IMG/VR virus record: IMGVR_UViG_3300045988_096068
Coordinates: 1-42,443 of that record
DNA from: a virus
Direction: 5' to 3' (one strand)
Length of the DNA stretch: 42,443 nt
This document shows positions 1 to 13,233 of this stretch, in pieces. Position 1 is the first letter of the stretch; each line of letters starts with the position of its first letter. A program made the translations under genes and the position numbers. The notes beneath the pieces are model-generated. The model saw only the letters and a program-made list of their open reading frames with translations, did not search any database and was not told the DNA's origin.

Positions 1-119
1 CAGCCTGTTCAGCAGTCGGCACAGGATGGCGGCTGGCTGCTTGGCAGACCTGTTTCCAGCAGGGAGGAATTTCTGGCAATACCGTCAGACCTGTACGGAA
101 GACCGACTTACTGCCCAGA
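1..119. repeat. Terminal redundancy copy 1 (identical to 42325..42443)
   Basis: Base-by-base reading shows 1..119 equals 42325..42443. The repeat lies inside an open reading frame that continues across the junction. Confidence 0.95.
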
Positions 120-366
120 CTTGCGCAGCGGCGTGATCTACTGCAAGCGGCTGAACCCGGACACCTGCGAATCCTATGTGCAGGAGTTCTACAGCCCGGA
201 AGCGTGGCGGCAGATACAGGCGCAACAGGCACAGCAGACCGCTGCACCGACACAGCAGTATGTGCCTATTGAAGAGTATAACGCCCTCGTCCACCGTCTG
301 GATGAACTGGAAAAGTGGCAGAAGAGCTTTTCTAAGCCCGCTACCGCTACGAAGAAAGGAGAATAA
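1..366 (+). CDS. C-terminal part of a junction-spanning hypothetical Pro/Gln-rich protein (gene starts at 42172; about 172 aa in total)
   Basis: Frame 1 is open from position 1 to TAA 364..366. The same frame is open from ATG 42172 to the window end, and the 119-nt overlap joins the two parts in frame. Confidence 0.7.
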   Translation, partial: QPVQQSAQDGGWLLGRPVSSREEFLAIPSDLYGRPTYCPDLRSGVIYCKRLNPDTCESYVQEFYSPEAWRQIQAQQAQQTAAPTQQYVPIEEYNALVHRLDELEKWQKSFSKPATATKKGE

Positions 367-368
367 CA

Positions 369-620
369 ATGTCCTCTCCGTTTGATCTGATTACTCACAG
401 CCCTATCATGCAGCTTGCAAATCTGGCTCGCGCCGGACAAAACCCGATGGGGCTTATCCAGCAGTTAAGCGGGCAGAATGCTCCTATCATGCAGGGGCTG
501 AACCTGATTCAGGGCAAGAACGAAGCGCAGCTCCGAACGATGGCGCAGAACCTCGCCAAAGAGCGCGGCATCGACCTGAACCAGCTGGCAAGCGTCCTGA
601 ATTTGACGCTTCCGAGGTGA
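369..620 (+). CDS. Hypothetical small Gln/Asn/Leu-rich protein (83 aa)
   Basis: ORF in the track. ATG follows RBS AAAGGAG and lies 2 nt after the previous stop. Confidence 0.65.
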   Translation: MSSPFDLITHSPIMQLANLARAGQNPMGLIQQLSGQNAPIMQGLNLIQGKNEAQLRTMAQNLAKERGIDLNQLASVLNLTLPR

Positions 621-632
621 GGAGGTTTTACA

Positions 633-794
633 ATGAGCGATTTTGAAAACAGCCATCCCGAAAAAGATTTTGACATCAACAATCTGTGTGGCAATGACAA
701 ACTATGGGTTCCTTTGATGCTTGGCTTTATTTTCGGTGCTGCCAGCAAAAAGTGGGATGACCCGGAAGACGAAAAAAGCAATCCTCCAAGCTGA
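633..794 (+). CDS. Hypothetical small membrane protein (53 aa, one TM segment LWVPLMLGFIFGAA)
   Basis: Not in the ORF track because it is under 60 aa. ATG 633 follows the strong RBS GAGGTGAGGAGG. TGA at 792..794. Hydrophobic core. Confidence 0.5.
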   Translation: MSDFENSHPEKDFDINNLCGNDKLWVPLMLGFIFGAASKKWDDPEDEKSNPPS

Positions 795-934
795 CTTAAC
801 AATCCTAAAATAGGCATCCCTCTAAGCGAAACGCTTCTCAGTTTTGCGGACTTGACAAAAACCGCATTTGTATGGCTTCGCCCATCGCACACGGCGGTGG
901 GATAGCATAACGCAAAACTGAAAGGAGTTTTGTT

Positions 935-1807
935 ATGGACGATTTTGCAACTGGCTATCTGGCTGGGCAGGACGGCGGCAATAACGGCGGTGGCTTTTTC
1001 GGCAACGAAGGCCTGTGGGCGGTTATCATCCTCGCTATCATCTTCGGCTGGGGCACAAACGGCTACGGTCGGAACGGTGGTGACAACGGCATGAACAGCT
1101 ACATCCCCTATCTGGTGGGCACCGGTGCAACCGGTCAGGGCGGCGCAGATACTCGTGCGGCTTTGTCAGAGGGCTTTTACCAGCAGGACACCTCCCGTTC
1201 TCTGGCTGGCATCCAGAGCGGTATCTGCTCTCTGGGCTATGACCAGCTCGCGCAGATGAATACCCTCAACTCTGCCGTTGCGGGCGGCTTTGCTGATACT
1301 AATCAGGCGATCTGTCAACTCGGCTACCAGAACGCACAGCTCGTGAACGGTCTGGAACGCAGCGTGTCCAACGGCGACAACGCCATCAGCCTCGCCATCA
1401 TGCAGGAGGGCAACGCACGGCAAGCGGGTCAGACCGCTATCCAGACGCAGCTGGCATCTTGCTGCTGCGAGAACAAGCAGCTCATCGGCGACCTGAAGTA
1501 CACCATTGCACAGCAGGACTGCGCTACCCGTCAGGCTATCGCAGACAACGCCCGTGCCATCGTGGACAACTGCAACGCCAACTTCCGCAGCATGATGGAC
1601 TACTTCACGCAGGATAAGATTGCCACTCTGACCGCTGAGAACCAGAGCCTGAAGTTCGCCGCTTCTCAGGATCGTCAGAATGCGCTTCTGACCACCGTGA
1701 TGTCCCAGCAGACCGATACCATCCTGAACCGGGTCAACCCTCGTCCGATTCCCGCTTATCAGGTGGCAAACCCCAACGTGGGCGTGAACTGCTGCGGCTG
1801 CTGCTAA
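935..1807 (+). CDS. Hypothetical membrane-anchored protein with a Gly/Asn-rich N-terminus, one TM, a Gln/Asn/Ala-rich coiled-coil-like body and Cys clusters (SCCCE, C-terminal NCCGCC)
   Basis: 290-aa ORF with RBS GAAAGGAG. TM segment LWAVIILAIIFGW. The protein ends with VNCCGCC. I recognise no family. Confidence 0.7.
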   Translation: MDDFATGYLAGQDGGNNGGGFFGNEGLWAVIILAIIFGWGTNGYGRNGGDNGMNSYIPYLVGTGATGQGGADTRAALSEGFYQQDTSRSLAGIQSGICSLGYDQLAQMNTLNSAVAGGFADTNQAICQLGYQNAQLVNGLERSVSNGDNAISLAIMQEGNARQAGQTAIQTQLASCCCENKQLIGDLKYTIAQQDCATRQAIADNARAIVDNCNANFRSMMDYFTQDKIATLTAENQSLKFAASQDRQNALLTTVMSQQTDTILNRVNPRPIPAYQVANPNVGVNCCGCC

Positions 1808-1842
1808 CCTACACACTCCCCGATAACACCGGGTGAACCATC

Positions 1843-1878
1843 GGGGCAGGGGTAAGACACCTCTGCCCCTGATTTTTT
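1843..1878 (+). terminator. Rho-independent terminator-like hairpin inside the orphan operon
   Basis: GGGGCAG (1843..1849) pairs with CTGCCCC (1863..1869) and is followed by TGATTTTTT. Confidence 0.5.
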
Positions 1879-1892
1879 AGGAGGAAACTACT

Positions 1893-2264
1893 ATGGCTTG
1901 CAAAACAAGCTGCCGTCTGTGCCCGCACCTCGTCATTTCGGACGCGGTAACGTTCTCCAATGACACGCTGACCATCAATATCCCCGCTGGCGCATACCAG
2001 AACGGAGAGAAGTATTGCATCGTGGTCGCTCAGAGCATCCCGGACACGACCACCATCAACGCCCCTGTGGTCATCACCATCGGTGCAGGTACGACCGCAT
2101 ACCCTCTGACCGACTGCAACTGTGCTCAGGCAACCGCCGAGAGCATCCACACCCGCACCCGCTACGCTACCCGTGTGACAACGTCTGCGACCGGCACCGG
2201 CACGTTCAAGTATCTTGGCTGTTTCTGCCGCTCTCACGCCGGTGCGCCTGCATCCATTTCTTGA
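1893..2264 (+). CDS. Hypothetical Cys-rich small protein (123 aa; N-terminal CKTSCRLCP, internal CNC, C-terminal GCFCRS)
   Basis: ORF with RBS AGGAGG. It has 9 Cys arranged at both termini, with Thr/Ile/Val-rich beta-like stretches between. Confidence 0.7.
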   Translation: MACKTSCRLCPHLVISDAVTFSNDTLTINIPAGAYQNGEKYCIVVAQSIPDTTTINAPVVITIGAGTTAYPLTDCNCAQATAESIHTRTRYATRVTTSATGTGTFKYLGCFCRSHAGAPASIS

Positions 2265-2278
2265 GGAGGTATTAGATT

Positions 2279-2917
2279 ATGGGCAAGACTAATTTTCGCC
2301 GCATGATGATGCTCCGCGACCACGAAAAAGACCGTGAGCCGGAACGCGACCGCCTCGAAGAAGAGCGTGACCGCAGGGAACGTGAGCTGGAACGTCGTCT
2401 GCGTAAGCTGGAAGATGGCAATGACCGCTATCCTTACTATCCGCAGGAGGAGAACCGCTACATTGACCCCTACCCTATCCCCCGCTACCCTGACGTAGAG
2501 TATGGGCGCAAGATGCCGCAGATTGGCTTCTCGCAGAACGGAGACTGGGACAAGCGGTCTGGGCAGTATGAGCATGGCGGTGCGGGCAGCCGCTCCATCA
2601 AGATGCCCCGCCAGCACCTTACCCACGATGAAGCGGAGGAATGGTGCGACAGCATGGTGAATGCTGACGGCACGAAGGGTTGTCACTGGACGCTGGAGCA
2701 GACGCAGGACGTGGCCAAGCAGCGCAACATCACCTGTGACCCGAACGATTTCTGGGCAGCAATGAATATGATGTACTCGGACTATTGCACGGTCGCTCGG
2801 TCGTACAGTGCTGACAATCAAAACTTTTATGCCGACATGGCCGCAGCTTTTCTGCACGACAAAGATGCTGTTCCCGGAAAAATCGTGAAATATCGGGATG
2901 TCATTGTGGACGGCTGA
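2279..2917 (+). CDS. Hypothetical protein with a charged Arg/Glu/Asp-rich N-terminus and a conserved-looking C-terminal domain (HWTLEQT...FWAAMNMMYSDY)
   Basis: 212-aa ORF with RBS GAGGAGG. The C-terminal motif resembles an uncharacterised domain recurrent in Firmicutes phages; this is from memory, with no family name asserted. Confidence 0.7.
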   Translation: MGKTNFRRMMMLRDHEKDREPERDRLEEERDRRERELERRLRKLEDGNDRYPYYPQEENRYIDPYPIPRYPDVEYGRKMPQIGFSQNGDWDKRSGQYEHGGAGSRSIKMPRQHLTHDEAEEWCDSMVNADGTKGCHWTLEQTQDVAKQRNITCDPNDFWAAMNMMYSDYCTVARSYSADNQNFYADMAAAFLHDKDAVPGKIVKYRDVIVDG

Positions 2918-2922
2918 AGCCA

Positions 2923-2943
2923 GACTACTTTTCGACTACTTTT
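2923..2943 (+). repeat. Two direct GACTACTTTT repeats, 11-bp phasing (candidate integrase arm-type sites, P arm)
   Basis: GACTACTTTT occurs at 2923..2932 and 2934..2943. The same decamer recurs at 3120 and 3131 on the other side of the core. Confidence 0.5.
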
Positions 2944-2956
2944 GGAACGCGAGATT

Positions 2957-2996
2957 GCGTTAGTATGCGTTAGTTCGCGTTAGTATGCGTATCATA
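2957..2996 (+). repeat. 3.5 tandem copies of a 10-bp unit GCGTTAGTAT (candidate Xis or accessory-factor sites)
   Basis: GCGTTAGTAT / GCGTTAGTTC / GCGTTAGTAT / GCGTATCATA read directly from the sequence. Confidence 0.5.
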
Positions 2997-3006
2997 AGAA
3001 ACACAC

Positions 3007-3055
3007 AAAAACCCGCATGACTGCGCAAAAGTCTAGCAGCCATGCGGGTTTTGTT
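3007..3055. terminator. Bidirectional Rho-independent terminator
   Basis: ACCCGCATG (3011..3019) pairs with CATGCGGGT (3041..3049). It is flanked by an A-run on the left and a T-run on the right, between the convergent + operon and int. Confidence 0.6.
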
Positions 3056-3059
3056 ATAG

Positions 3060-3081
3060 TTGCGCCAGCAGGAGTCGAACC
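3060..3081 (-). other. attP core candidate: 22-nt tRNA 3'-end-like segment
   Basis: The minus strand reads GGTTCGACTCCTGCTGGCGCAA. This is a T-loop (TTCGACT), a T-stem 3' half, an acceptor 3' strand and a discriminator, with no 5' half of a tRNA. It lies about 50 nt from the integrase stop. Confidence 0.6.
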
Positions 3082-3119
3082 TTTTTCGGGGTTCGTCCTA
3101 TCATTCTTTTTTTGCTTTT

Positions 3120-3140
3120 GACTGCTTTTTGACTACTTTT
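3120..3140 (+). repeat. Two direct GACTGCTTTT / GACTACTTTT repeats, 11-bp phasing (candidate arm-type sites, P' arm)
   Basis: Decamers at 3120..3129 and 3131..3140 have the same orientation and phasing as the pair at 2923..2943. Confidence 0.5.
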
Positions 3141-4278
3141 TATCATCTTGGTCGTTATAGTATGCAATCATTTTTTGCGTTGCATCTTTGAGCTTTCGTT
3201 CGCGGATGTGTGTGTAGATCTTGTAAGTCGTCGAGATATCAGCGTGACCCATTATTTTTTTGGCTTCCAGCACACCGACGCCTGCGTCGTATAAGTCCGA
3301 CGCGAACGCATGCCGAAATTGGTGGGCTGTCACTGTAGGCTCCAGCACCAGCGGCAGCGGATTTGCAGAGGATTTTGGGCCCCGGCGGCTGTCTCTATAG
3401 CGGGTTTTACTTTTGCTGGGCCGCACAAGGCCTAGCTCGGTGCAGTAGCTGAGCCATCGGCTGTGATACTCTGCATCCGTCAAGGGCCTTGCCATGCCAC
3501 CGATGACATACTCTGTCGGCTTTCCCCGGCGCGGCTCTATCTCTTGCCTGAGATGGGGCATAAGCGGGATGACCCGGACGCCGTTATTGGTTTTGGGGTC
3601 CTGTATTTTGACACCGCCACCTGACCAGGAAACTTTCTTGCTGACATAGATTTTGTTGTTTTCGAAATCTATGTCCTCCCATCGGAGAGCAATCAGCTCA
3701 CCCAGGCGGCAGCCGGTGTACATCAGCATCCAGGCGCACAGCCCGAACCCTTCGGGATGCGCCCGGAAAAGAGCAAGCTCCTTGTCTGTAGGCGGTTCCC
3801 GGATGGCCGCAGGCTTCCCGGCGGGGGGCTTGATATCTTGCATCGGATTGTATGCCGACCCGCTTGCAAGACGCCAGCCGCGAAAAATGCCGCGCAAAAC
3901 GCTGATCGTGTTCCGGATGCTGCTCGTTGATAACCCCTCATCTTTGAGCGCCTGACCGAATCCGGCTACCATGGCCGGTGTGATCTCGTCCATCCTGCGG
4001 CCCGCGAAGTATTTGACGCAGCGGTCATAGTTGGACCTATAAGACGAGTCTGTCCCCTCCTCAATGCGTTTGAGCAGCTTTTCCCAGTAATCTTTGGCGA
4101 CGGCTTCAAACAATTCGGCTTTGGCGGACTCCTCTTTTCTCTGCATCAAGGCCTCTTTGTATTTTGCCTCGGCCTCGGTCTTTGTTTTGCCGTAAAATAC
4201 CTTATATTTTCCGTCCGGCATTTTGCGCTTGACTTGATATCGTCCATCCGCGCGCTGGCCTTTTCTACTTTTTGGCAT
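3133..4278 (-). CDS. int: Tyrosine recombinase (phage integrase)
   Basis: 381 aa. The C-terminal catalytic region contains HQFRHAFASDLY...GHADISTTYKIYTH (R...HxxR...Y signature), with an N-terminal SAM-like domain. It is adjacent to the tRNA-like core. Confidence 0.95.
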   Translation of the reverse strand: MPKSRKGQRADGRYQVKRKMPDGKYKVFYGKTKTEAEAKYKEALMQRKEESAKAELFEAVAKDYWEKLLKRIEEGTDSSYRSNYDRCVKYFAGRRMDEITPAMVAGFGQALKDEGLSTSSIRNTISVLRGIFRGWRLASGSAYNPMQDIKPPAGKPAAIREPPTDKELALFRAHPEGFGLCAWMLMYTGCRLGELIALRWEDIDFENNKIYVSKKVSWSGGGVKIQDPKTNNGVRVIPLMPHLRQEIEPRRGKPTEYVIGGMARPLTDAEYHSRWLSYCTELGLVRPSKSKTRYRDSRRGPKSSANPLPLVLEPTVTAHQFRHAFASDLYDAGVGVLEAKKIMGHADISTTYKIYTHIRERKLKDATQKMIAYYNDQDDKK

Positions 4279-4870
4279 CTCGTGTATCCTCCATGTTTTT
4301 TACGGAATAAGCATCCACGCCCTGGAGGGCTGCTTTCTGGCCGCAGTCGCGCGCCTGGCGCACAACGTCCATGACCGGCTGTGTTCCGTTCGGGTCGGGG
4401 TCGGTCTTCGTCGACTGCGTCATCTCATAGTGGCCGATGATGGCATTGACGATGGACACCCGGTCCCGCAAAGGAGTGTGTAAGTTTGCCAGCACCTCCG
4501 TCAGCACCCCCATCGGGTCGGAGCCGTGATCGCCATAGTAGAGGTACAGCCAGCCGTCCACCTCGTAGTTGGACATCTCATCCACGGCGGCGTGAAGGAT
4601 CTGGCGCTTCTCCTCGGTGGAGATGTCCTCTTGTAAGTAATCGAGCAGACCGGGATAGATACAGGCGTCCATGCAGCGCCGGGCCGGGATGCTGCACGCT
4701 ACGCACCAATTGATAATGTCAGCCAGCGTCACAGGGGATGTTCCCCGCTCCCTGCTGGCCACGGTCGGCTTGCTGATTCCAAGCCGTTTTGCCAGCTTTT
4801 CCTGGCTGAGCCCGGCTTTTGCCCTTGCCATTTCGAGCGCTTTTGCCACTTGCAAGTCATACTCGTTCAT
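4265..4870 (-). CDS. XRE-family HTH regulator with an unknown C-terminal domain (candidate repressor, 201 aa)
   Basis: HTH motif GLSQEKLAKRLGISKPTVASRE. The start was chosen at ATG 4870, preceded by AAAAAGGAGG. It overlaps the int start by 14 nt. Confidence 0.8.
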   Translation of the reverse strand: MNEYDLQVAKALEMARAKAGLSQEKLAKRLGISKPTVASRERGTSPVTLADIINWCVACSIPARRCMDACIYPGLLDYLQEDISTEEKRQILHAAVDEMSNYEVDGWLYLYYGDHGSDPMGVLTEVLANLHTPLRDRVSIVNAIIGHYEMTQSTKTDPDPNGTQPVMDVVRQARDCGQKAALQGVDAYSVKNMEDTRDAKK

Positions 4871-4978
4871 AATTGCCTCCTTTTTACCGATTCGACACGA
4901 TATTGCGTATAGATTCCTTTCCATCTCCTATGATATAACAATTATGTAAAAAATTTCCATCGCAGGAGGTAAAAAATT

Positions 4979-5083
4979 ATGGCTGCTATTATGTATGTAC
5001 CCGACGATATGGAGATCATCGACGGGATGCCCGCATCAAAACCAAAAGACCCGGATCGCGTCCGGGCCCCGTGGGAGGAATGA
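4979..5083 (+). CDS. Possible very small ORF (34 aa) divergent from the HTH regulator
   Basis: ATG 4979 follows AGGAGGT. TGA at 5081..5083 overlaps the next start (ATGA). No similarity recognised. Confidence 0.3.
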   Translation: MAAIMYVPDDMEIIDGMPASKPKDPDRVRAPWEE

Positions 5084-5286
5084 CTATGCCAACTGATACC
5101 ATGCTGCTGGACTACGTCCGAAACCGCACACTCAATCTTGTGTACACGCTATCCAATTATGCCGCTGATCCGGACGTCTACGGCGAGCTGCTGCGCATTG
5201 CCCAGCAGGCCAAAGACGACGCTGACTCCGGCATTGACCCCGGCGACCGGCTGGATTGCATCAATGGCCGTGTTGTCGAGCTGTGA
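5080..5286 (+). CDS. Hypothetical small acidic protein (68 aa)
   Basis: Listed in the ORF track as 5071..5286. ATG 5080 is preferred, and GGGAGG lies upstream. Confidence 0.5.
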   Translation: MTMPTDTMLLDYVRNRTLNLVYTLSNYAADPDVYGELLRIAQQAKDDADSGIDPGDRLDCINGRVVEL

Positions 5287-5326
5287 CATCTTCCCCGTCG
5301 TCAGCCCGGCGGCGGGGAATGATTTT

Positions 5327-5343
5327 GTGTCCACTGTGGACAC
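5327..5343. repeat. Perfect 17-bp palindrome GTGTCCACTGTGGACAC (copy A)
   Basis: Read directly. Intergenic, between convergent genes. CCCGGCGGCGGGG lies 10 nt upstream. Confidence 0.9.
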
Positions 5344-5345
5344 CT

Positions 5346-6065
5346 TCACAAGCTTTTTTCTAAGAGCTGAGACTTTTTCGCGTTATATTCTTCTTCAGTA
5401 ATCGCACCCATATCCAAGAGCCGCTTAAACTTCAAAAGTTCATCTGCAACGCTGTTGACACGTCCGTATGCAGATTGTGTCTGTGATTTCTTTTCCATGC
5501 AGGCCTTCAGCAGAGCGGTCATCCCGGCGGGATACGTCTGCGCTGACAGAGTCTTTTTGCCAAAAGGAAGCTCAAAAGAAATCGTTATATTTTCCTTGCC
5601 CTTACCTTTTCGAGTCTCTGTTTTTGCTGTAGATGCTCCCACGATCGCGCCGACTGGGCCGGCAATGGCTGCGCCGACCACGGCACGACCGATTCCGCCT
5701 TTGGTCTGCGTGACGGTGAAATCTTCCGAATCTGACTCGTAACCGGATACTTCGTCAAAGGCGTAGATCATGCGAGGGCCTTTGTCTCCGCTTCGACGAC
5801 CAAAATAAAAGAGTCCGTTTTCGTCGTCCACAGAAACATAAAGTGAATCTGCATCATAAAGAGAATCTGTTTCCTTAAACTGTTTCCGGCGTTTTTCCTG
5901 GACTGCCCAAAAATCAGCCAACTCTTTTGTCGAAAATTTGGACGCCTGAAATCCGACCTTTGAATAGAAAAAGTTCATGCAGCTGGAACAGATCAATCCG
6001 TCCGCGCTTCTTTCCCGATTCAACAGGCCCATTTTTCCACCGCAAACAGGGCATAAATTTGCCAT
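5346..6065 (-). CDS. Accessory protein with an N-terminal zinc ribbon (DUF4428-like), a glycine-zipper segment and a C-terminal SHOCT-like motif
   Basis: Motifs seen: CPVCGGKMGLL...CSSC; GGIGRAVVGAAIAGPVGAIVGA; C-terminal ELLKFKRLLDMGAITEEEYNAKKSQLL. The gene is visibly AT-richer than the flanks. Confidence 0.75.
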   Translation of the reverse strand: MANLCPVCGGKMGLLNRERSADGLICSSCMNFFYSKVGFQASKFSTKELADFWAVQEKRRKQFKETDSLYDADSLYVSVDDENGLFYFGRRSGDKGPRMIYAFDEVSGYESDSEDFTVTQTKGGIGRAVVGAAIAGPVGAIVGASTAKTETRKGKGKENITISFELPFGKKTLSAQTYPAGMTALLKACMEKKSQTQSAYGRVNSVADELLKFKRLLDMGAITEEEYNAKKSQLLEKSL

Positions 6066-6085
6066 AACTTGTCCTCTTCTCTTTG

Positions 6086-6979
6086 TTAATAAGCAATTTT
6101 TACAAATTTGCTTCCTAATTTATGCGATTCGAGGTTTTCCAAAACACGTTTTTGAACATTCGGAGATACGGCCATCAAACTTTCATAAGCATCTAAAACC
6201 TTTGTGATTGCTTCGCGGTCGTTTTGATAACTGCTCATTTGGTAATCGTATTGGGAATCCGAACCCTTAAAACGATAAACAGCTTTTTTGGCTGAAACTG
6301 ATTTTTTTAGCATCTCAATTTCCACCGGGTCGGCTATTTCGTCGCGGACTTCCCAAACGGTGGTATAATTTGATCCAATTTCTTTCAGAACTTTTTGACT
6401 GGACTCTGTATTGAAATACTTTTTGTAAACTTCTCCATCCACGGAGTAAACAATGCTATTCCAGAAAATCCAGTTTCCTCCGTAATAAGTGTATATCAGC
6501 CGAATTGGCTGAATTTCATCATTTTTTACGCAAAAATACGGAAGAATAAAAGTTGTTTGCGTTGACAAAGGCCATTTGCTCCAATAGTAAATATCGAAGT
6601 TTTCTACATCATCATGCTCTTTATAAAGACTTTTTCTTAGTTTTTCGGTTAAATATTCAACTTGCAAATCTTCCAATTCCTCGGTGGCGAGCTTCAACGT
6701 TTCATAATTGGAAACCATGGCTTTCCACTCGTCCGGAAGAGAATCATAAGCACCCTGTGCGTTTGCAATTGCGGTAGCGCTTTCCAACGTGATTGGTCCG
6801 ATCTGATTGATTTGTGCTTCCACCTGTTCCGGAGTAGTGACCTCGTTTTCCTTCTCCAACTGCGCCAGCGAGGTGTACCCGGCGGGGCTGAGTGCCATTG
6901 TAGGCAGGGCAGCACCGGCCAGAGTTGCCGCAATGCACAAACCTGCAACCATCGTTTTGCCAATTTTCACAAGTTTCAT
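6086..6979 (-). CDS. Secreted accessory protein of unknown function (297 aa, signal peptide)
   Basis: The start was chosen at ATG 6979 after GGAGAAAG. The N-terminus MKLVKIGKTMVAGLCIAATLAGAALPTMALS looks like a signal peptide. AT-rich. Confidence 0.7.
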   Translation of the reverse strand: MKLVKIGKTMVAGLCIAATLAGAALPTMALSPAGYTSLAQLEKENEVTTPEQVEAQINQIGPITLESATAIANAQGAYDSLPDEWKAMVSNYETLKLATEELEDLQVEYLTEKLRKSLYKEHDDVENFDIYYWSKWPLSTQTTFILPYFCVKNDEIQPIRLIYTYYGGNWIFWNSIVYSVDGEVYKKYFNTESSQKVLKEIGSNYTTVWEVRDEIADPVEIEMLKKSVSAKKAVYRFKGSDSQYDYQMSSYQNDREAITKVLDAYESLMAVSPNVQKRVLENLESHKLGSKFVKIAY

Positions 6980-7061
6980 GATTCTTTCTCCGTTCTCTTG
7001 ATTTTTTATCATCATGGTTGTAATATAAAACCATGAAATACAACTTAAAGGAGTGTTATGA

Positions 7062-7160
7062 ATGTCTGACAACGAATTTTTGGCCCTTTTGCGGGAACAT
7101 CCGGAACTTTGGGAACTCGTACTGCGTACCCTTCAAGGGTTTGAAAAGGCCGTTGTCTGA
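7062..7160 (+). CDS. Possible very small ORF (32 aa)
   Basis: ATG 7062 lies 8 nt after AAGGAG, and TGA is at 7158..7160. No other support. Confidence 0.25.
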   Translation: MSDNEFLALLREHPELWELVLRTLQGFEKAVV

Positions 7161-7168
7161 CATCGCGG

Positions 7169-7197
7169 TTGACCTTTTTGCTTCAAGTCCATATAAT
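7169..7197 (+). promoter_or_regulatory. Near-consensus sigma-70-type promoter TTGACC-17-TATAAT
   Basis: TTGACC at 7169..7174, an exact 17-nt spacer, TATAAT at 7192..7197, about 45 nt upstream of ATG 7242. Confidence 0.65.
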
Positions 7198-7241
7198 GAC
7201 GGTAGTGCGAATGTTTATTCACTTTCAGAAAGGAGAACTAT

Positions 7242-7577
7242 ATGCTTGATGCTCTTCGAGAAAAACTTTTCCCCCAATCACCTGAACCTGTTCCCTCGGC
7301 TATTACCTGCGGAATCACAGGGGGGATGCACACTTATCGGATTTCGCTGCGCGAAGAATGCAACAACCCTTCGGAAGTCGCTGAAATCGTAGATGCAGTG
7401 ATTCGCATGATGAAGGAAAAAAAAGTTTCTTTGCAGACTGCCATGTATCTGCCCGAAGCCTTGCACGATGAGCTCGAAAAGAGCTTTTACATTCAGGTCT
7501 TTACAAGCATTTTGGCACCGTTACCGAACGATGGTGACGATCAGCGCGACGATGGAAACGGCCAAGGCCAGAACTGA
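7242..7577 (+). CDS. Hypothetical protein (111 aa) with its own strong promoter
   Basis: RBS GAAAGGAG. Its 3' end overlaps the convergent gene 7521..7859 by 57 nt. Confidence 0.55.
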   Translation: MLDALREKLFPQSPEPVPSAITCGITGGMHTYRISLREECNNPSEVAEIVDAVIRMMKEKKVSLQTAMYLPEALHDELEKSFYIQVFTSILAPLPNDGDDQRDDGNGQGQN

Positions 7578-7859
7578 CAGTGTATTTGCAAACCGCAGCT
7601 CGCTTTTCCGGCGGGCCAGATATTGCAGATACAGTTTTCCGTTTTGCGAGATTTTGTATGTGCCTTTCGGGCTGATTCCATTGGAACAGTCCGGCTCATA
7701 ATCGACCAGGCCCAAATCGCATAAACTTTTAAGCCTTGTCGGCCAATCGCCGGTATTCTCTACCGTTTTTTGCGAAAGCAGGCGCAGATCTTCCAGCTCT
7801 TCGGGAGACAGCACCAGCGTCGAAAAATCCGGGATGTCCGCATGGTCCACGATCCTCAT
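7521..7859 (-). CDS. Hypothetical protein with a C-terminal membrane anchor (112 aa), co-transcribed with the XRE regulator
   Basis: The start overlaps the upstream stop (ATGA-type coupling at 7856..7859). C-terminal TM segment LSVLALAVSIVALIVTIV. Confidence 0.6.
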   Translation of the reverse strand: MRIVDHADIPDFSTLVLSPEELEDLRLLSQKTVENTGDWPTRLKSLCDLGLVDYEPDCSNGISPKGTYKISQNGKLYLQYLARRKSELRFANTLSVLALAVSIVALIVTIVR

Positions 7860-8185
7860 CCTTCTTTCTTGCTGCTCTCCAACACGGCCAGCGCGGCGGC
7901 TTTGGCTGCTGCACGTGCTTCCGGTGTTGCACTCTTGTAAGCCACTTCAATGTCGGCCCATTCTCTTTCGAGCTCGCCTTGCCCGGCGGGCTCTTTTTTT
8001 GTGCCCATCAGCTCCTCGACCGAGATGCCAAAATAATCGGCGATCTTCTTGCGGTTTTTAACTTGCGGTAAAGCGCCGTTTTTCCAACTTGTCACAGCGG
8101 AACGCTTAAAGCCCAAATCTTCAACAACAACTGTCGGTGATTTTTCGATTTTCTCGCACTGATTTACAAAATTACGCCAAAACAA
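7856..8185 (-). CDS. XRE/Cro-CI-type HTH regulator (candidate lysogeny repressor)
   Basis: HTH region DLGFKRSAVTSWKNGALPQVKNRKKIADYFGISVEELMG. The track ORF extends to 8209, but AAGGAGGTGG lies inside it, so a TTG start at 8185 (or GTG at 8194) is more likely. Confidence 0.8.
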   Translation of the reverse strand: MFWRNFVNQCEKIEKSPTVVVEDLGFKRSAVTSWKNGALPQVKNRKKIADYFGISVEELMGTKKEPAGQGELEREWADIEVAYKSATPEARAAAKAAALAVLESSKKEG

Positions 8186-8219
8186 AAATACCACCTCCTT
8201 TTTGTTCAACTTGCCAAAT

Positions 8220-8276
8220 ATCGAACTTTGCGTTACTTTTTGAGTAAAAGTTCTTGAAAGTCCGTTAAAGTTCGAT
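8220..8276. promoter_or_regulatory. 10-bp inverted repeat ATCGAACTTT ... AAAGTTCGAT (candidate operator pair)
   Basis: Arms at 8220..8229 and 8267..8276. The right arm lies in the spacer of the rightward promoter, and the left arm is next to the repressor start. Confidence 0.4.
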
Positions 8277-8282
8277 TATAAT
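8254..8282 (+). promoter_or_regulatory. Near-consensus rightward (early lytic) promoter TTGAAA-17-TATAAT
   Basis: TTGAAA at 8254..8259, a 17-nt spacer, TATAAT at 8277..8282. It is divergent from the XRE repressor gene. Confidence 0.65.
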
Positions 8283-8288
8283 AGTACC

Positions 8289-8612
8289 GTACTCAAGAGC
8301 GAGTCCCTATCCCAGACCGCTTGAGTGCTCATGGGTTCTTCCTGAATGCTGCTTTGCGTTTCAGATGATGCCCCCTACCGCGCGACGGGCCTCAGCCATA
8401 GACCCGAAACGACCGCAAAAACGCCGTACCTCGTTTTTGCGTATACCGCCCCCATCTTGACCGTGGGGGACGGTCACACATTGCCGAGATTTTGGGCGCA
8501 TGTGATCGAGTGTAATTGATTCCGCAAATCTATTATAACCCGATTGCACCCGCTTGGCAATGTTTTTTGTGGTCAAAATACGAACAATTATTCACAGGTG
8601 AGGTGGAAAAAA
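8289..8612 (+). other. About 320-nt hairpin-rich untranslated leader between the early promoter and the Cro-like gene
   Basis: No RBS-preceded ORF. Stems include ACTCAAGAGCG/CGCTTGAGT, CGCAAAAACG/CGTTTTTGCG (8414..8441) and CCGCCCCCA/TGGGGGACGG (8446..8473). Confidence 0.35.
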
Positions 8613-8804
8613 ATGCAGACAACCGTTACGCCGGAGTGGGAATGCGAGGTCCGGAAGCGGATGAAGATTCTCGGCGTGAAGAATTACACCGTTTTGGCCG
8701 AGAAGACCGGATACAGCGAGAGCACCGTCCGGAAATACATGTGCGGCTGTTATACCAACGACAACCCCCGCGTGGGAATCGAGCAGGCGCTTGGGATGAG
8801 GTGA
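8613..8804 (+). CDS. Small HTH protein, Cro-like / early regulator (63 aa)
   Basis: ATG 8613 follows AGGTGAGGTGG. The HTH-like region is NYTVLAEKTGYSESTVRKYM. It is the first gene of the rightward operon. Confidence 0.65.
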   Translation: MQTTVTPEWECEVRKRMKILGVKNYTVLAEKTGYSESTVRKYMCGCYTNDNPRVGIEQALGMR

Positions 8805-8808
8805 CAAA

Positions 8809-8985
8809 ATGGCAAGGAGTGCAATATTTGCCTGTTTTATGTGTTTTGTCGCGGGCGGATGCCTCGGCATCTTTGTGATCGTGGGTGCTTCCCGCCCCCA
8901 GAAGAAGGTTTTGCTGGGCTGGGTCGCCTATCTGCTTGTGGTTCTGGCCCTGGCTTATCGAATCGGAGGTGCATTGCTGTTATGA
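8809..8985 (+). CDS. Hypothetical small two-TM membrane protein (58 aa)
   Basis: Below the track threshold. ATG 8809, TGA 8983..8985. Two hydrophobic segments. Confidence 0.45.
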   Translation: MARSAIFACFMCFVAGGCLGIFVIVGASRPQKKVLLGWVAYLLVVLALAYRIGGALLL

Positions 8986-9194
8986 CCTGTTACATTTTTG
9001 CGGACCTGTTGGTCCTGCTGGGGCGCGATGCTTATCACGCCCAGATGACCGAGACGCTGTTCCTGCTGTTCCTGCTGGCACCGATCGTGGCCGGTGCGCC
9101 GTACCTGCTGGCCCGGTGGGACGCATACAAGCGCGCTGACAACGCCCGGCGGCGGGCGGCGCAGCGGCGGCGGATGGAAAGGATGGCGAAGTGA
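8982..9194 (+). CDS. Hypothetical small membrane protein with an Arg-rich tail (70 aa)
   Basis: ATG 8982 overlaps the previous stop (ATGA). GGAGGT lies 11 nt upstream. TM segment LFLLFLLAPIVAGAPYLL. Confidence 0.5.
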   Translation: MTCYIFADLLVLLGRDAYHAQMTETLFLLFLLAPIVAGAPYLLARWDAYKRADNARRRAAQRRRMERMAK

Positions 9195-9195
9195 T

Positions 9196-9537
9196 ATGGG
9201 CGCTCCAGGAAGATACACCCGCATCTGCGAGGACTGCGGGGTCGTGATGGAGAATGTTGGTGCAACGCGCCGGTTCTGCCCGGGGTGTCTGGCCAAGCGC
9301 AGCGCGGAGAAGGCGCGCAACGCCGACCGCGCCAAGCGGGCCGAATGGAAAGAGTGGGAGGCTCAGAGGAGAGTTGAGCAGGAACTTCGAAAGGCGTTCC
9401 CGCATCCGCAGAAGCCGACCGCAGAGAACAGCATCCAGGCTGTCAATGCCCGCGCGGAAGCGGCTGGCCGCTCCTACGGCCAGCAGGTGCTATTTGAACG
9501 CAGACAGAAGGAGTTGAAAGACCGTGGCGAAATCTAG
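9196..9537 (+). CDS. Zinc-ribbon protein with a basic coiled-coil tail (113 aa)
   Basis: CEDCG...CPGC motif, followed by a Lys/Arg/Glu-rich helix. ATG 9196 is an internal Met of track ORF 9094..9537. Confidence 0.6.
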   Translation: MGAPGRYTRICEDCGVVMENVGATRRFCPGCLAKRSAEKARNADRAKRAEWKEWEAQRRVEQELRKAFPHPQKPTAENSIQAVNARAEAAGRSYGQQVLFERRQKELKDRGEI

Positions 9538-9760
9538 CCGAACCGAAGCGTGGCACGACAGCTACAAGGCCATTTTTGGCCGGTATGGCTGCATCCGGCT
9601 GACACTGGAGCAGGTCAGCGTGTGCATGGGGATCCCGGCTCGGTATGTGCGCAAGCGCTACCCGGACGGCTGGGCCAACATGTCCGGCGGCGAGGGCAGG
9701 GGCAAGGGAAACACCATCCGGCTCGATGTCTTACTTGACCAGGAATTTGGAGTGTATTGA
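9524..9760 (+). CDS. Hypothetical small protein, possibly HTH/excisionase-like (78 aa)
   Basis: GTG start in the track. LTLEQVSVCMGIPARYVRKRY resembles MerR/Xis-type HTH. The assignment is weak. Confidence 0.4.
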   Translation: MAKSSRTEAWHDSYKAIFGRYGCIRLTLEQVSVCMGIPARYVRKRYPDGWANMSGGEGRGKGNTIRLDVLLDQEFGVY

Positions 9761-9773
9761 TGGAGGACAAAAA

Positions 9774-10100
9774 ATGGAAGCAACGAACCCTGTGATGACG
9801 AACGATCTTTCCCCGGCGGGTGATCCGCTCAGGCCGCTCGGCCCGGAAATGATCTCCCAGATGGTCAAGGACAGCGTGGAGCGCGGCCAGCCCAACCGGG
9901 AGCTGTCCACGGCGAGCAGATACCTTCTGCTGGCCGCAACGAATATTTGCGAAGAGGCATTCCGGAACGTTTCCGGCTTCCTGGACCACTTCCAGAGCGA
10001 CGAGGCCGAGTATTGGGCGCTGGACGCAAAAAAAGCTATGGATCAGACCCACCGTGTGCTCAACGTCCTCGCCGAGATCGAGGGGCTGGATATCCCCTGA
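9774..10100 (+). CDS. Hypothetical protein (108 aa)
   Basis: ATG 9774 follows GGAGGA. It is in frame within track ORF 9645..10100. Confidence 0.6.
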   Translation: MEATNPVMTNDLSPAGDPLRPLGPEMISQMVKDSVERGQPNRELSTASRYLLLAATNICEEAFRNVSGFLDHFQSDEAEYWALDAKKAMDQTHRVLNVLAEIEGLDIP

Positions 10101-10113
10101 CCCATCCCCACCA

Positions 10114-10175
10114 CTGGCGGCAGGTGGTAAAACAAGAGCCGCTGCCAGCGCGAAAGCGTAAAATAGTTTGAAACA
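10114..10175 (+). repeat. Structured intergenic element, copy 1 (hairpin plus GCGAAAGC GNRA-type hairpin)
   Basis: About 75-80% identical to 10797..10859. CTGGCGGC/GCCGCTGCCAG stem, then GCGAAAGC. Confidence 0.6.
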
Positions 10176-10196
10176 TAAAAATGGAGGTACTGCATC

Positions 10197-10568
10197 ATGG
10201 AGAAAGACAAAATCATTGTTGACGGAGTGGAATATGTTCGTGCTGACAGCATCCAGAGCAACGCTCTGGCGACCGAACTTGATGGGATGCCCTACTGCAT
10301 GGTCCGCACTTACAGCGCTGGTGTATTTTCTGGGTATCTTGAGAGCCGCGAGGGCAAGGAGGCAACCCTTCGCAATGCTCGCCGAATCTGGTATTGGGAT
10401 GGCGCTGCAACTTTGTCTCAGCTGGCCACGGATGGAACCAGCAAGCCGGAAAACTGCAAGTTCCCGTGCCCGGTTGATTGTGTGATGCTGACCGAAGTGA
10501 TCGAAATCATTCCCATCACCAAAAGGGCTAAAAAGAGTATTGAGGAGGTTGCCGTATGGGAAATGTAA
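10197..10568 (+). CDS. Conserved phage protein of unknown function (123 aa; RTYSAGVF...ARRIWYWDGAATLSQLA motif)
   Basis: RBS GGAGGT. The motif resembles an uncharacterised family common in Firmicutes phages (from memory). Confidence 0.7.
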   Translation: MEKDKIIVDGVEYVRADSIQSNALATELDGMPYCMVRTYSAGVFSGYLESREGKEATLRNARRIWYWDGAATLSQLATDGTSKPENCKFPCPVDCVMLTEVIEIIPITKRAKKSIEEVAVWEM

Positions 10569-10783
10569 TTAACGTCTATGGAAACGGCTCCGGCAATGGC
10601 TCCGGCTACGGCTCCATCTACGGCAACGGCTCCGGATGCGGCTGCGACGAAGGCTACGGTTCCGGCTCCGACCGCGGCTACGGCTCCGGCAATGGCTCTG
10701 GCTACGGCTCCATCTACGGCTCCGGCAATGGCTCCGGCTTTGGCGACGGCAACGGCAACGGCTCCGGATGCGGCTGCGGCTGA
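10556..10783 (+). CDS. Low-complexity Gly/Ser/Asn/Tyr/Cys-rich protein (75 aa) with an internal duplication
   Basis: GSGNGSGYGSIYG and NGSGCGC blocks each occur twice, with DNA repeats starting at 10585 and 10681. It overlaps the upstream gene by 13 nt. The long antisense ORF here is a shadow. Confidence 0.5.
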   Translation: MGNVINVYGNGSGNGSGYGSIYGNGSGCGCDEGYGSGSDRGYGSGNGSGYGSIYGSGNGSGFGDGNGNGSGCGCG

Positions 10784-10796
10784 TTTATACAACTCC

Positions 10797-10859
10797 AATG
10801 ATGGCAGGAGGGTAAATAAAAGCCATTGCCAGTGCGAAAGCGCAAAATATTTTTAGAAA
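10797..10859 (+). repeat. Structured intergenic element, copy 2
   Basis: Aligns with 10114..10175. The first stem changes compensatorily (ATGGC/GCCAT versus GCGGC/GCCGC), and the GCGAAAGC hairpin is conserved. Confidence 0.6.
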
Positions 10860-10872
10860 CGAGGTATTGAAA

Positions 10873-11157
10873 ATGAGCTGTGAAAAATGCAGATCGAACG
10901 AACATCACACGTTCCGGCGCGAGTATAGCCGCGACGCCAAGGAGATGGGCCGGGCCATGTACAACATGTTGCTGAACGGCCCGCTGGACAAGTCGCGGGC
11001 GGTCCTCACCGTGCAGGAAACGCGGGACGCCTGCTCCTATTGCCGCTCTCTGGTCGAGAAGGACATCCGGCTGTTGGTGTACTCCTACAACCCGGATGCT
11101 CCTGCTGACGCGGATGACGTTGTGCACGAACCCACGGTCGGCGAAGTGACGCTCTGA
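10873..11157 (+). CDS. Hypothetical protein with CxxC...CxxC (94 aa)
   Basis: ATG 10873 lies 8 nt after GAGG, in frame with track ORF 10867..11157. Confidence 0.6.
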   Translation: MSCEKCRSNEHHTFRREYSRDAKEMGRAMYNMLLNGPLDKSRAVLTVQETRDACSYCRSLVEKDIRLLVYSYNPDAPADADDVVHEPTVGEVTL

Positions 11158-11170
11158 AAGGACGGTCAAG

Positions 11171-11779
11171 ATGCCAACAAAATCTAACTCCCGGCGGCGT
11201 GGGCCGTCTGCGGGCGTTTCTGGCGGGGTTTTGTCTGAGCCTATCAGTTTCCCGGTCAAGGGCCCGAAAGCCCGCGAGATCAAGCCGGAGGAGTGCGTGG
11301 TGCGCGTTATTGCTGCCTGCGAGGATGGAATCCGCGTTGTGGTGCTCCCGAAGGAGTCTGCCGTGCGGGACATCCTCAACGAGACATACGGCCCGCTGGG
11401 CTGGGGCGACTCGTACTACTACACCAAAAATTGGTGGAGATGCCAGCTCGAAGTGCTCTCCCCTGTCAATGGTCTTCCGGTGCGGAAGGACGCTGGGCCG
11501 ATGTGCCTGCCCTCCGCCGATGTGGACCGGATGCAGGAAAACACCAGCTTTCTCCGCGCGGCGGCACTGTTCGGCGTCGCGGAGGACGTGATGGACCTGA
11601 AGCCCATCGCCCTGAAGAGCGAGCAGGTCCCGGTGGTGAAGGACCAGCACGGCGTATGGCGCGCGGCGGAAAAGCTCACGGTGGACCGTTTTGCCCGCGC
11701 TGAAGACGGACACATCCACATGGTGCAGTTTGCACTGGCCAGCGGGAAGAAAGTCTTATGGGACGAGGCGACGTTGTAG
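11171..11779 (+). CDS. Putative Rad52/Sak-like single-strand annealing protein
   Basis: LNETYGPLGWG and SFLRAAALFGV resemble the conserved Rad52/Sak motifs (LdevfGpfGW, KRAAvqFGIG). It sits beside NinB and SSB. The family call is from memory. Confidence 0.55.
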   Translation: MPTKSNSRRRGPSAGVSGGVLSEPISFPVKGPKAREIKPEECVVRVIAACEDGIRVVVLPKESAVRDILNETYGPLGWGDSYYYTKNWWRCQLEVLSPVNGLPVRKDAGPMCLPSADVDRMQENTSFLRAAALFGVAEDVMDLKPIALKSEQVPVVKDQHGVWRAAEKLTVDRFARAEDGHIHMVQFALASGKKVLWDEATL

Positions 11780-12312
11780 GAAGCCTCCCGGTCGTCTATG
11801 ACCCAGCCCGGCAGCAGATCGTTGTGGAAAACTCGGCGGAATTTGTGAAAACACAGATCCGCCAAAAGCTGGACGATCTGGCACATGGCTCTCCGCTGCG
11901 GCTGACGCTCACCGTGGAGCGGCAGCGAAAAAAACGCTCGCTGGAACAGAACCGCATGATGTGGGCGCTGCTCACCATTATGGCTGACACGTACAACGCT
12001 GGGAAAGCTGGCGGCACCACCCCGGAAGCCTGCTATATCGAGATGCTCGAAGAATACGGCCTCGAATATGATTTTCTGGAGCTTCCGGTGGCCGCTGTGC
12101 CCATCCTGCGCAAGGCATACCGGCTGGTATCCGTGGTAGAGCTGCTGGACAACGACCGCTGCACTGTCAAGGCGTCGATGGGTTCCAGCAGCTTTTCCAC
12201 CGCTCAGATGACGGCCTTTATCGACGGCATTTTTGACCGTCTGGCCGAGATGGACGTCAACGACCCGAATGTGACACGATATTGGCAGGAATGGCAGGAG
12301 GTGCCGAGATGA
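11758..12312 (+). CDS. ninB: NinB/Orf-family recombination mediator
   Basis: RSLEQNRMMWALL matches the RSLDQNRKLWACL signature of lambda NinB. Recombination-module context. Confidence 0.75.
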   Translation: MGRGDVVGSLPVVYDPARQQIVVENSAEFVKTQIRQKLDDLAHGSPLRLTLTVERQRKKRSLEQNRMMWALLTIMADTYNAGKAGGTTPEACYIEMLEEYGLEYDFLELPVAAVPILRKAYRLVSVVELLDNDRCTVKASMGSSSFSTAQMTAFIDGIFDRLAEMDVNDPNVTRYWQEWQEVPR

Positions 12313-12485
12313 CCAAAAAGCGTTTAATCAAGCTTTTGATGGGCGATTTTGGCTTGCCCAAGCGGGTTGCAACCCAAAAAGCTATCCTTGCAAATCAAAA
12401 TCACATTCCCTACGAAAAAGTATATTATTATTTTTTTGAGTATCGGCGGTATATAAATTTTGAGGCGTTGAGATATGGCAAATAG
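12309..12485 (+). CDS. Hypothetical small protein (58 aa)
   Basis: ATG 12309 follows AGGAGGTG and overlaps the ninB stop. AT-richer 3' half. Confidence 0.5.
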   Translation: MTKKRLIKLLMGDFGLPKRVATQKAILANQNHIPYEKVYYYFFEYRRYINFEALRYGK

Positions 12486-13226: not shown

Positions 13227-13233
13227 CCCTCTT

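Follow-up and report, generated by a model that had tools for sequence, protein, structure and literature searches.

A mobile accessory cassette in phages of gut and rumen anaerobes and its possible role in building a two-piece, cysteine-linked fibre

The six genes studied here, g1 to g6, are encoded on the IMG/VR virus record IMGVR_UViG_3300045988_096068, which was analysed over its whole length of 42,443 nucleotides (the window). The ends of the window are identical, with positions 1-119 repeating positions 42325-42443. This 119-bp direct repeat is the assembly overlap of a circular genome with a true unit of 42324 bp, so that g1 is split by the window ends and spans the junction. All six genes are on the plus strand. 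The 5' part of g1 (42172..42443, the last 119 nt of which repeat positions 1-119) encodes a Pro/Gln-rich N-terminus and the 3' part (1..366) a small globular domain followed by a C-terminal helix, giving a protein of 172 aa. The other genes are g2 (369-620), g3 (633-794), g4 (935-1807), g5 (1893-2264) and g6 (2279-2917), encoding proteins of 83, 53, 290, 123 and 212 aa, respectively. A preliminary description of this DNA had reported six co-oriented genes with strong ribosome-binding sites (RBSs); all six open reading frames (ORFs) were confirmed, and an AGGAGG-type RBS precedes each of them. Compared with relatives of about 90% DNA identity, the ratio of nonsynonymous to synonymous substitution rates (dN/dS) was 0.05-0.09 for g1, g2, g4, g5 and g6 (0.067 for g1 and 0.052 for g2) and 0.23 for g3, and these low values, a mark of strong purifying selection, indicate that g1 to g6 are real coding genes. 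Together with an upstream gene for a sigma70-region-4 regulator, g1, g2, g4, g5 and g6 form a conserved and transcriptionally insulated accessory cassette in which g3 is optional. This cassette spreads by horizontal transfer between phages whose hosts are gut and rumen anaerobes, and thousands of phage genomes from gut and rumen carry it.

The genes had been regarded as orphans, which they are not. A collection of 5.8 billion proteins contained more than 7265 relatives of g4, 1262 of g5 and 206 of g6, none of them with an informative name. The g5 proteins formed 262 clusters at 50% identity and were encoded on more than 590 IMG/VR contigs, and single clusters at 90% identity contained 4044 members for g4 and 7778 members for g6. 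The genome bins of carriers were metagenome-assembled genomes of Clostridiales, Oscillospiraceae, Ruminococcaceae and Lachnospiraceae. The genes travel together, and the order g1-g2-g4-g5-g6 is kept at amino-acid identities of 25-68%. The proposed six-gene unit thus stands for five genes but not for g3, which was present in 26 and absent from 49 of 75 close relatives. The core g1-g2-g4-g5 was found in the isolated Clostridium perfringens phages CPD1, CPQ4 and XP41-N3. In Butyrivibrio phage Ceridwen, g1-g2-g4 are present, and the position of g5 is taken by an unrelated gene whose small product is beta-rich and contains Cys. Bacteroides uniformis phage C3_41T2LP carries g4 and a DUF7841 gene, and g4 is also present in the crAss-like phages cr116_1 and cr1_1. 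All contexts of the cassette were phages, prophages or phage-plasmids. Genes for small Cys-peptidase-like and HExxH peptidases were frequent optional members, and HNH/AP2-type homing-endonuclease-like genes were located in or just after the cassette at 7600-8223 of L099 (CPD1) and 6079-6873 of L102 (Ceridwen).

Relatives with and without the cassette were compared. In L104-106, the position corresponding to 41530 of the window is joined directly to 2575, and 41531..2574 is absent; these phages retain a gene for a 159-aa DUF7841 protein but have no regulator, no g1-g5 and no N-terminal half of g6. Phage crAss001 has no cassette at the site that is occupied in cr116_1, between the Ldc endolysin gene and the scaffold and major capsid protein (MCP) genes. 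Presence and absence of the cassette among related phages is therefore of the kind seen for morons, and the view of the locus as a dispensable, insulated accessory unit is supported by the cassette-less relatives and by a conserved layout of terminator and promoter. Among close relatives the cassette was about 90% identical at the DNA level, the tail genes of the window occurred in 6 of 41, and the integrase of the window occurred in none of 70. Rep3 and ParA genes were present downstream of the cassette in all 70 close relatives with enough sequence, which makes these relatives phage-plasmids. A position next to a putative attP, which the preliminary description had given as typical of a moron, is thus specific to this genome and is no general property. 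The general position of the cassette is a junction after late or lysis genes. It lies near holin or endolysin genes in the window, L012, L014, L017, Ceridwen and cr116_1. In phages of about 78 kb, the cassette and its regulator lie between the MCP gene and a gene for a 750-aa fibre, and in another lineage, in a phage that carries NrdD and dUTPase genes, the cassette follows genes for tail proteins of 939 and 1119 aa. As a separate observation, the cassette-less relative L106 encodes an RVT_1 reverse transcriptase (3257-4291) beside its tail-fibre genes, which may belong to a diversity-generating retroelement.

The regulator gene is located at 41513..41746 on the plus strand and encodes a sigma70-region-4-type helix-turn-helix protein of 77 aa from a GTG start, or possibly of 56 aa from the ATG at 41576. 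The protein matched Pfam Sigma70_r4_2 with E=4e-4, and its equivalents of 70-89 aa upstream of g1 in L012, L011 and L017 passed the Pfam cut-off. In most lineages, g1 is preceded by a gene for such a sigma70-region-4 protein, 70-118 aa long, and the gene was present in 69 close relatives. The start of the regulator gene is overlapped by an 81-aa ORF (MASTTY...; 41326-41568) that has a strong RBS, and the 5' part of this ORF corresponds to the N-terminus of the 159-aa DUF7841 protein of the cassette-less relatives (P0453). Hence the GTG start may be spurious, and the true start may be the ATG at 41576. Upstream of the regulator gene, 18-bp near-palindromes TTTCGTSACSTCACGAAA were found at 41392-41409 and 41425-41442, 33 bp apart. 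They are unique in the window (0 expected by chance) and lie within some 95 nt that L104 lacks; they may be a pair of operators. A tie between these palindromes and an immunity region was considered and dropped, with no further copies present in the window.

The region between the regulator gene and g1 contains a series of signals on the plus strand. The promoter-like element TGTGnTATAATA occurs twice as a pattern match, at 41733-41753 and 41844-41864, 111 nt apart. The promoter-like site noted earlier was recovered here at 41724-41752, where 11 of 12 positions match and a TG is present, together with its 21-nt repeat at 41844-41864. A terminator hairpin, T1 (41807-41844), follows the first copy of the element. 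A second, terminator-like hairpin with a repeated T-run, T2 (41919..41968), was read from the sequence and overlaps a match to the Rfam abiF RNA that is below threshold (28.6 bits against a gathering score of 37); no RNA element of the leader scored above the Rfam gathering score. Terminator T3 (42055..42098) has a 15-bp stem (42055-42088) and a T-run, is the leader terminator expected upstream of g1, and marks the 5' edge of the conserved cassette. The T-runs of the three hairpins in 41733-42098 are spaced 118 and 134 nt apart, and these promoter and terminator units might encode small RNAs or act as stacked insulators. The following promoter/operator region (42091..42171) contains two direct repeats CTTTKTTGTCCTTCG spaced 21 nt apart, a -10-like TACACT and the RBS of g1. 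T3 and the next 80 nt, with the RBS, TACACT and a pair of TTGTCCTTCG boxes spaced by 21 nt at 42096-42126, are kept in relatives, and many positions of 42091..42171 were at least 95% conserved among 54 unique relatives, more than the T3 stem.

T3 was also retained where the spacer between the regulator gene and g1 varied from 158 to 2024 nt, as in 69 close relatives (L019-L098). The spacer is a local insertion hot spot. Long spacers hold extra small ORFs, such as those of 85 and 97 aa in L031 and a 170-aa ORF on the minus strand in L095. Distant clusters share the layout of a terminator, lineage-specific direct repeats, a -10 element and an RBS. At the level of such patterns, the cassette has its own transcription signals and is insulated from neighbouring operons. 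Inside the cassette, a GC-rich hairpin with a T-run lies between g4 and g5 (1843..1879, plus strand) and may be a partial terminator or an mRNA-end element; a terminator scan placed the hairpin at 1843-1869, in agreement with the internal terminator noted earlier. A GC-rich hairpin was found at the same g4/g5 position in 11 of 14 distant clusters, including that of the Bacteroides phage. This conserved position fits the idea that the genes before and after it are expressed at different doses.

The g4 protein matched PHROG 16490 (E=1.5e-38). It begins with an acidic Gly-rich N-terminus and a hydrophobic helix; a Gly linker then leads to a helical part of about 200 residues and to a Pro/Cys tail, in which the Pro-rich motif PxPxPAYxVxNP is followed by a Cys-rich end. 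The AlphaFold2 (AF2) model of g4 was all-helical, with a helix at 26-36, a disordered Gly linker, a near-continuous helix at 70-267 and a disordered tail, at a predicted local distance difference test (pLDDT) score of 52. Foldseek searches with this model gave two chance matches only. The hydrophobic stretch spans only 13-15 residues (KD19 1.70), with an acidic N flank and a near-neutral C flank. In g3 the hydrophobic segment is weak (KD19 1.11) and resembles the g4 anchor; a BLASTP comparison of g3 with residues 27-38 of g4 gave E=0.009. Hydrophobic stretches thus exist in both proteins, but the single transmembrane (TM) segment ascribed to each is borderline, being weak in g3 and short in g4. 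In the region of g4 described as coiled-coil-like, the helices had a hydrophobic periodicity of 3.6-3.67 and no clean heptad of 3.5. Both Cys motifs reported for g4, SCCCE and the terminal NCCGCC, were found. C98, C127, CCC176-178 and C196 were 83-98% conserved, and the last 15 residues contained 3.5 Cys on average.

Homologues of g4 in C3_41T2LP, cr116_1 and cr1_1 were detected by BLASTP with E values of about 1e-13 and had the same architecture. The copy in Ceridwen was weaker (tblastn E=2e-5, BLASTP E=0.006). Common to the distant g4 proteins were a Gly/Trp-flanked hydrophobic helix, CCC, LxAENQxLxxAASQ, PxPxPAY and a Cys-rich tail. The crAss-like and Bacteroides homologues had been labelled "viral fiber" or "spike" by other annotators.

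The AF2 model of g5 was a compact eight-stranded beta-sandwich with a pLDDT of 88.3. The first 10 and the last 13 residues were of low confidence, and the conserved Cys residues sit there; this agrees with the earlier picture of a beta-rich protein with Cys at both ends, and the motifs MACKTSCRLCP and GCFCRS were both found. In the N-terminal arm, C3, C7 and C10 were conserved in 87%, 55% and 92% of sequences, respectively, and no CC doublet was present. g5 was the best conserved protein of the cassette, with 56-68% identity where g4 had 25-40%. In Foldseek searches of BFVD, family members came first, followed by domains of many long fibre proteins (probability 1.0, E 4e-5 to 1e-2), including collagen-like, T7-type, tail-collar and hyaluronidase fibres. 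A fibre-type fold, as would suit a distal domain, was therefore seen for g5 in BFVD, and its PDB counterpart was weak: the best match, to a chain of the Pa193 tail fibre, had E 0.17, and none was convincing. The likeness of the predicted g5 fold to domains of long phage fibre proteins is the sole direct structural clue to the product of the cassette. BFVD also returned a 294-aa DUF7841 protein containing a g5-like fold, which links g5 and g6.

A comparison of g5 with the Ena fibre subunits of Bacillus, offered earlier as speculation, was not sustained. Like Ena, g5 has about 120 aa, is beta-rich, bears Cys on a flexible N-terminal arm and near the C-terminus, and has no signal peptide. However, hmmscan against Pfam at E<=1 gave no family for g5 and no match to DUF3992, the Ena domain. 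A profile of 60 g5 relatives found no Ena chain among PDB sequences, and no Ena entry was among the best 50 of the 108 Foldseek matches in PDB. Furthermore, g5 is phage-borne, the hosts include non-sporulating Bacteroides, and the contexts of the cassette are all of the phage type, unlike the chromosomal ena locus of spore formers. The cassette is not Ena-like.

The remaining proteins combine low-complexity regions with small domains. g1 matched PHROG 21718 (E=5.7e-10) and has an N-terminus rich in Pro, Gln and Tyr and ends in a helix, with a small domain between them in which Y98 and K100 are invariant. Homologues of g1 were found in CPD1, Ceridwen, L001, L011, L012 and L018, and hhalign found no homology between g1 and the position-equivalent proteins of the Bacteroides, crAss-like and Ceridwen phages. 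g2 has Gln/Asn/Met-rich NPMxL repeats and a helix-loop-helix-like C-terminus, with a weak match to Pfam E3_binding (E=0.04) below the cut-off. The N-terminal half of g6 is of low complexity and rich in Arg, Asp, Glu, Tyr and Pro, and its C-terminal domain, which had looked conserved, is Pfam DUF7841 (PF25223; E=8.6e-27). In C3_41T2LP, a DUF7841 protein (5e-16) and a separate 77-aa Arg/Asp/Tyr-rich protein correspond to the two halves of g6. Both g6 and the proteins that replace it elsewhere contain low-complexity segments rich in Arg, Asp, Tyr and Gly. No signal-peptide-like or N-terminal hydrophobic region was found in g1, g2, g5 or g6, and g5, which starts with MACKTSC, has no h-region. A role of g3 as the holin was rejected on its weak hydrophobicity, optional presence and relaxed selection; the real holin is encoded elsewhere in the window. 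Profile searches of PDB with g4, g5 and g6 gave no meaningful match, and those with g1 gave sub-threshold coiled-coil matches alone (best E=0.13). Searches of NCBIfam, PDB (sequence and profile), Pfam (except for DUF7841), PADLOC, Rfam and the literature gave no informative match for the cassette, no literature was found on DUF7841, PF25223 or the PHROG identifiers, and no proteome of a carrier phage was found. The statement that none of the six proteins could be assigned a function was borne out, as no characterised relative was found by sequence, profile or literature searches.

Our tentative proposal is that the product of this self-regulated, mobile accessory cassette is a fibre of two Cys-linked pieces, built in the cytoplasm in the course of lytic growth. 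g4 would be the shaft, with a short hydrophobic N-terminal anchor, a flexible Gly linker, an alpha-helix of about 200 residues and the Pro/Cys tail, and g5 would be the distal piece, a small beta-sandwich with a flexible, Cys-bearing N-terminal arm. The facing Cys-rich ends, the adjacency and the co-conservation of g4 and g5 suggest such a two-piece fibre. The Cys clusters could connect the g4 tail to the g5 arm, through a coordinated metal while in the reducing cytoplasm or through disulfides formed after release. g1, g2 and g6, each with a low-complexity region and a small folded domain, may act as assembly or adaptor factors. Since the soluble parts have no signal peptide, they would be assembled inside the infected cell, in its cytoplasm, like virion appendages and endolysins; together with the position after or within late genes, this suggests lytic growth. 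Transcription would start from the promoter behind the terminator, with the two direct-repeat boxes probably bound by the region-4 protein, and the g4/g5 hairpin would lower the dose of g5 and g6. With its private regulator, terminators and hairpin, the cassette seems to be a unit whose timing and dose are set separately. The product may be an optional appendage of the lytic programme that decorates the virion, or that stays on the membrane or on debris at lysis, and it would not be a surface organelle specific to lysogeny.

Several findings weigh against this fibre. The g4 model is of low confidence (pLDDT 52), and its hydrophobic periodicity of 3.6-3.67 departs from the 3.5 of a classical coiled coil. 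Virion fibres do not usually come with a hydrophobic anchor, a private regulator or as many as three terminators upstream. g5 is the most conserved protein of the set, whereas variability is usually highest in receptor-binding tips. hhalign detected no homology to g5 in the position-equivalent proteins of the Bacteroides, crAss-like and Ceridwen phages. The cassette rides with unrelated tail modules, which makes a specific docking site on the virion hard to picture. In C3_41T2LP the cluster follows and lies among recombination genes rather than structural genes. The composition of the partners, rich in Gln/Pro, Arg/Asp/Tyr and Gly, is atypical of fibre chaperones. Long apparent fusions of g4 or g5 were set aside as products of deletion or assembly that give no sign of contact: P0184 (a collagen fibre joined to the C-terminal half of g4), P0313, P0333, P0336 and P0345 start or end in mid-domain and were treated as chimeras. 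In view of the anchor, the private regulator, the low-complexity partners, the unrelated tail modules and the context in C3_41T2LP, we put the probability of the fibre at about 0.35.

Among known systems, the closest likeness is to accessory phage fibres with dedicated assembly factors, such as the lambda stf-tfa side fibres and T4 fibritin with gp57A. Compared with what is generally known of these, the cassette would similarly combine a helical shaft with a small distal beta-domain; it is dispensable, is exchanged between phages and has small helper proteins encoded alongside. Cytoplasmic assembly without signal peptides and the match of the g5 fold to annotated fibre domains would be further likenesses. 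In contrast, shaft and tip would be separate polypeptides with conserved Cys clusters, and the g4 shaft would begin with a hydrophobic anchor and a Gly-rich linker. Low-complexity partners, a private sigma-r4 regulator, insulation by terminators and the lack of a fixed tail module also set the cassette apart. Its most fitting classification is as an atypical variant of the accessory appendage cassettes of phages.

The suggestion that the operon is an undescribed lysogenic-conversion system for the cell envelope was also weighed. The cassette would be expressed in the carrier state, with g4 as a membrane-anchored rod across the wall and a crosslinked, Cys-rich surface layer that would change adhesion, exclusion of other phages or spore properties. 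In temperate relatives the cassette lies between the lysis module and the module for maintenance of lysogeny, and a regulator, sigma70-like promoter-like sites and terminators of its own come with it. g4 has a hydrophobic anchor, and the cassette shows the presence/absence polymorphism typical of morons. Phage morons such as HK97 gp15 and lambda lom and bor are similarly insulated units, bounded by terminators at a module junction and present or absent among close relatives. However, the cassette consists of five co-evolving genes and a regulator, and in crAss-like and ~78-kb phages it also lies in or beside structural and lysis genes, while in the phage with NrdD and dUTPase it follows the tail genes. 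The structural-gene context in the crAss-like and ~78-kb phages argues against a role specific to lysogeny, though it does not exclude one. A surface assembly is not supported, as g1, g2, g5 and g6 have no signal peptide. Bacteroides hosts do not sporulate, disulfide crosslinking is unlikely on the surface of strict gut anaerobes, and no homology to Ena, BclA or S-layer proteins was found in Pfam or among the best 50 Foldseek matches in PDB. We consider this explanation unlikely, and the cassette is not specifically a lysogenic-conversion locus.

An accessory role in lysis or release is improbable to the same degree. Endolysins reach the wall through holin lesions, and the soluble proteins could do likewise, with g4 acting in a spanin-like manner and g5 binding wall polymers; they would finish the disruption of the envelope, or keep progeny from being lost to debris by masking the receptors on it. 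The cassette recurs beside holin or endolysin genes in unrelated lineages (the six noted above), its partners have no signal peptides, and the predicted fold of g5 is that of fibre domains that usually bind cell-surface polymers. The N-terminal anchor, long helix, conserved Cys and Pro-rich end of g4 resemble the i-spanin Rz. Unlike Rz/Rz1, however, no lipoprotein partner or lipobox was found, and g1, g2, g3, g5 and g6 have no N-terminal hydrophobic signal. Most hosts of phages with the cassette are monoderm and have no outer membrane to fuse; the closest ones, namely Clostridiales, Oscillospiraceae, Ruminococcaceae, C. perfringens and Butyrivibrio, are not diderm, and the Bacteroides and crAss-like phages carry only its distant branch. 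A canonical holin and endolysin were already present in every complete carrier genome examined, the cassette with its own regulator is dispensable among close relatives that retain the same lysis genes, and the C3_41T2LP cluster is located away from lysis genes.

A protein that seemed to show g5 as the wall-binding domain of an endolysin was discarded. The 412-aa P0516, Amidase_2 joined to g5, looked like a Rosetta-stone fusion. Its parent in L112 is 98% identical and continues into M23 and SH3 domains, so P0516 is an in-frame deletion product of an Amidase_2-M23-SH3 lysin in a decayed prophage, which speaks against the lysis role. The decayed prophage sequences L107-L110 carry Amidase_2 fused to a complete g5, followed by a gene for an Arg/Asp/Tyr-rich protein and an integrase gene.

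Less probable again is an intracellular scaffold or matrix, in which g4, with a Gly-rich head, a helical rod and a Cys-rich tail, would form an intermediate-filament-like polymer on the inner face of the membrane with g5 and the low-complexity proteins attached. The resulting condensate or matrix would organise replication or assembly or embed virions, an occlusion matrix hardened by oxygen, for passage from one anaerobic host to another, being one possibility. All partners would be cytoplasmic, and low complexity of the sticker type is abundant in g1, g2, g6 and the Arg/Asp/Tyr-rich proteins that replace g6. The hairpin implies more g4 than g5, the extreme conservation of g5 would suit a subunit of a lattice or polymer, the small peptidases that are often optional members suggest maturation, and the cassette is restricted to phages of strict anaerobes. 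However, the scaffold is drawn by pure analogy, as no homology to crescentin, keratin, polyhedrin or condensate scaffolds was found, and the fold of g5 suggests a fibre domain and not a lattice protein. A more specific version is very unlikely: a phage-built material in which a membrane-tethered g4 filament would be crosslinked through conserved Cys clusters to a lattice of the g5 beta-sandwich, with the low-complexity proteins as "glue", kept reduced or metal-bound in anaerobes and hardened by oxygen in the lysate, where it would protect or clump virions on their way between hosts. If true, such an oxygen-hardening material would serve bacteriophages in the way that occlusion bodies serve other viruses.

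The least probable reading is a module of defence or counter-defence carried in a phage hot spot, for although the region is variable, with extra small ORFs inserted in close relatives, and the cassette is mobile and dispensable, no PADLOC model matched at E<0.01 (two matches at chance level had E=0.02-0.03 and 11.8 bits), no nuclease, NTPase or other effector domain was found, the composition is structural rather than enzymatic, and the cassette also lies within the late region of crAss-like genomes.

Human-gut viromes commonly contain the cassette. Both g4 and DUF7841 are shared by phages on either side of the Bacillota/Bacteroidota divide, and g4 is also found in Crassvirales. Solving this Cys-studded rod-and-knob module would assign a function to the "dark matter" of PHROG 16490, PHROG 21718 and DUF7841, and could bring to light an accessory structure that matters for the persistence, host range or transmission of phages in the anaerobic gut. 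Cultivable carriers, namely C. perfringens phages CPD1 and CPQ4, Butyrivibrio phage Ceridwen and B. uniformis phage C3_41T2LP, make the proposal directly testable.

The genes around the cassette were also annotated. Upstream of it in the window are TMP, Dit and Tal genes, followed by a complete, functional lysis cassette. The first gene of the lysis cassette encodes a GH25 lysin (37392-38078) and the last a Holin_SPP1 holin (~38305-38550), and a 73-aa TM/coiled-coil ORF between them encodes a small membrane protein. A second fibre module follows, and then an 80-nt 5' stub of a second GH25 gene (41186-41281 region) that is 92% identical to the lysin start of the relative L104. Apparently, a fibre/lysis module had been gained by duplication or exchange and then decayed. 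Downstream of g6, a tyrosine integrase is encoded at 3133-4278 on the minus strand, and an Xre-type repressor gene is also located downstream of the cassette. Host typing based on TerL gave no match. The only ParA of the window is a single distant ParA-like ORF at 14247-14951. Two adjacent tRNA genes (Rfam 64.7 and 64.1 bits) are located at 18878-19031, upstream of the ORFs that start from 19248.

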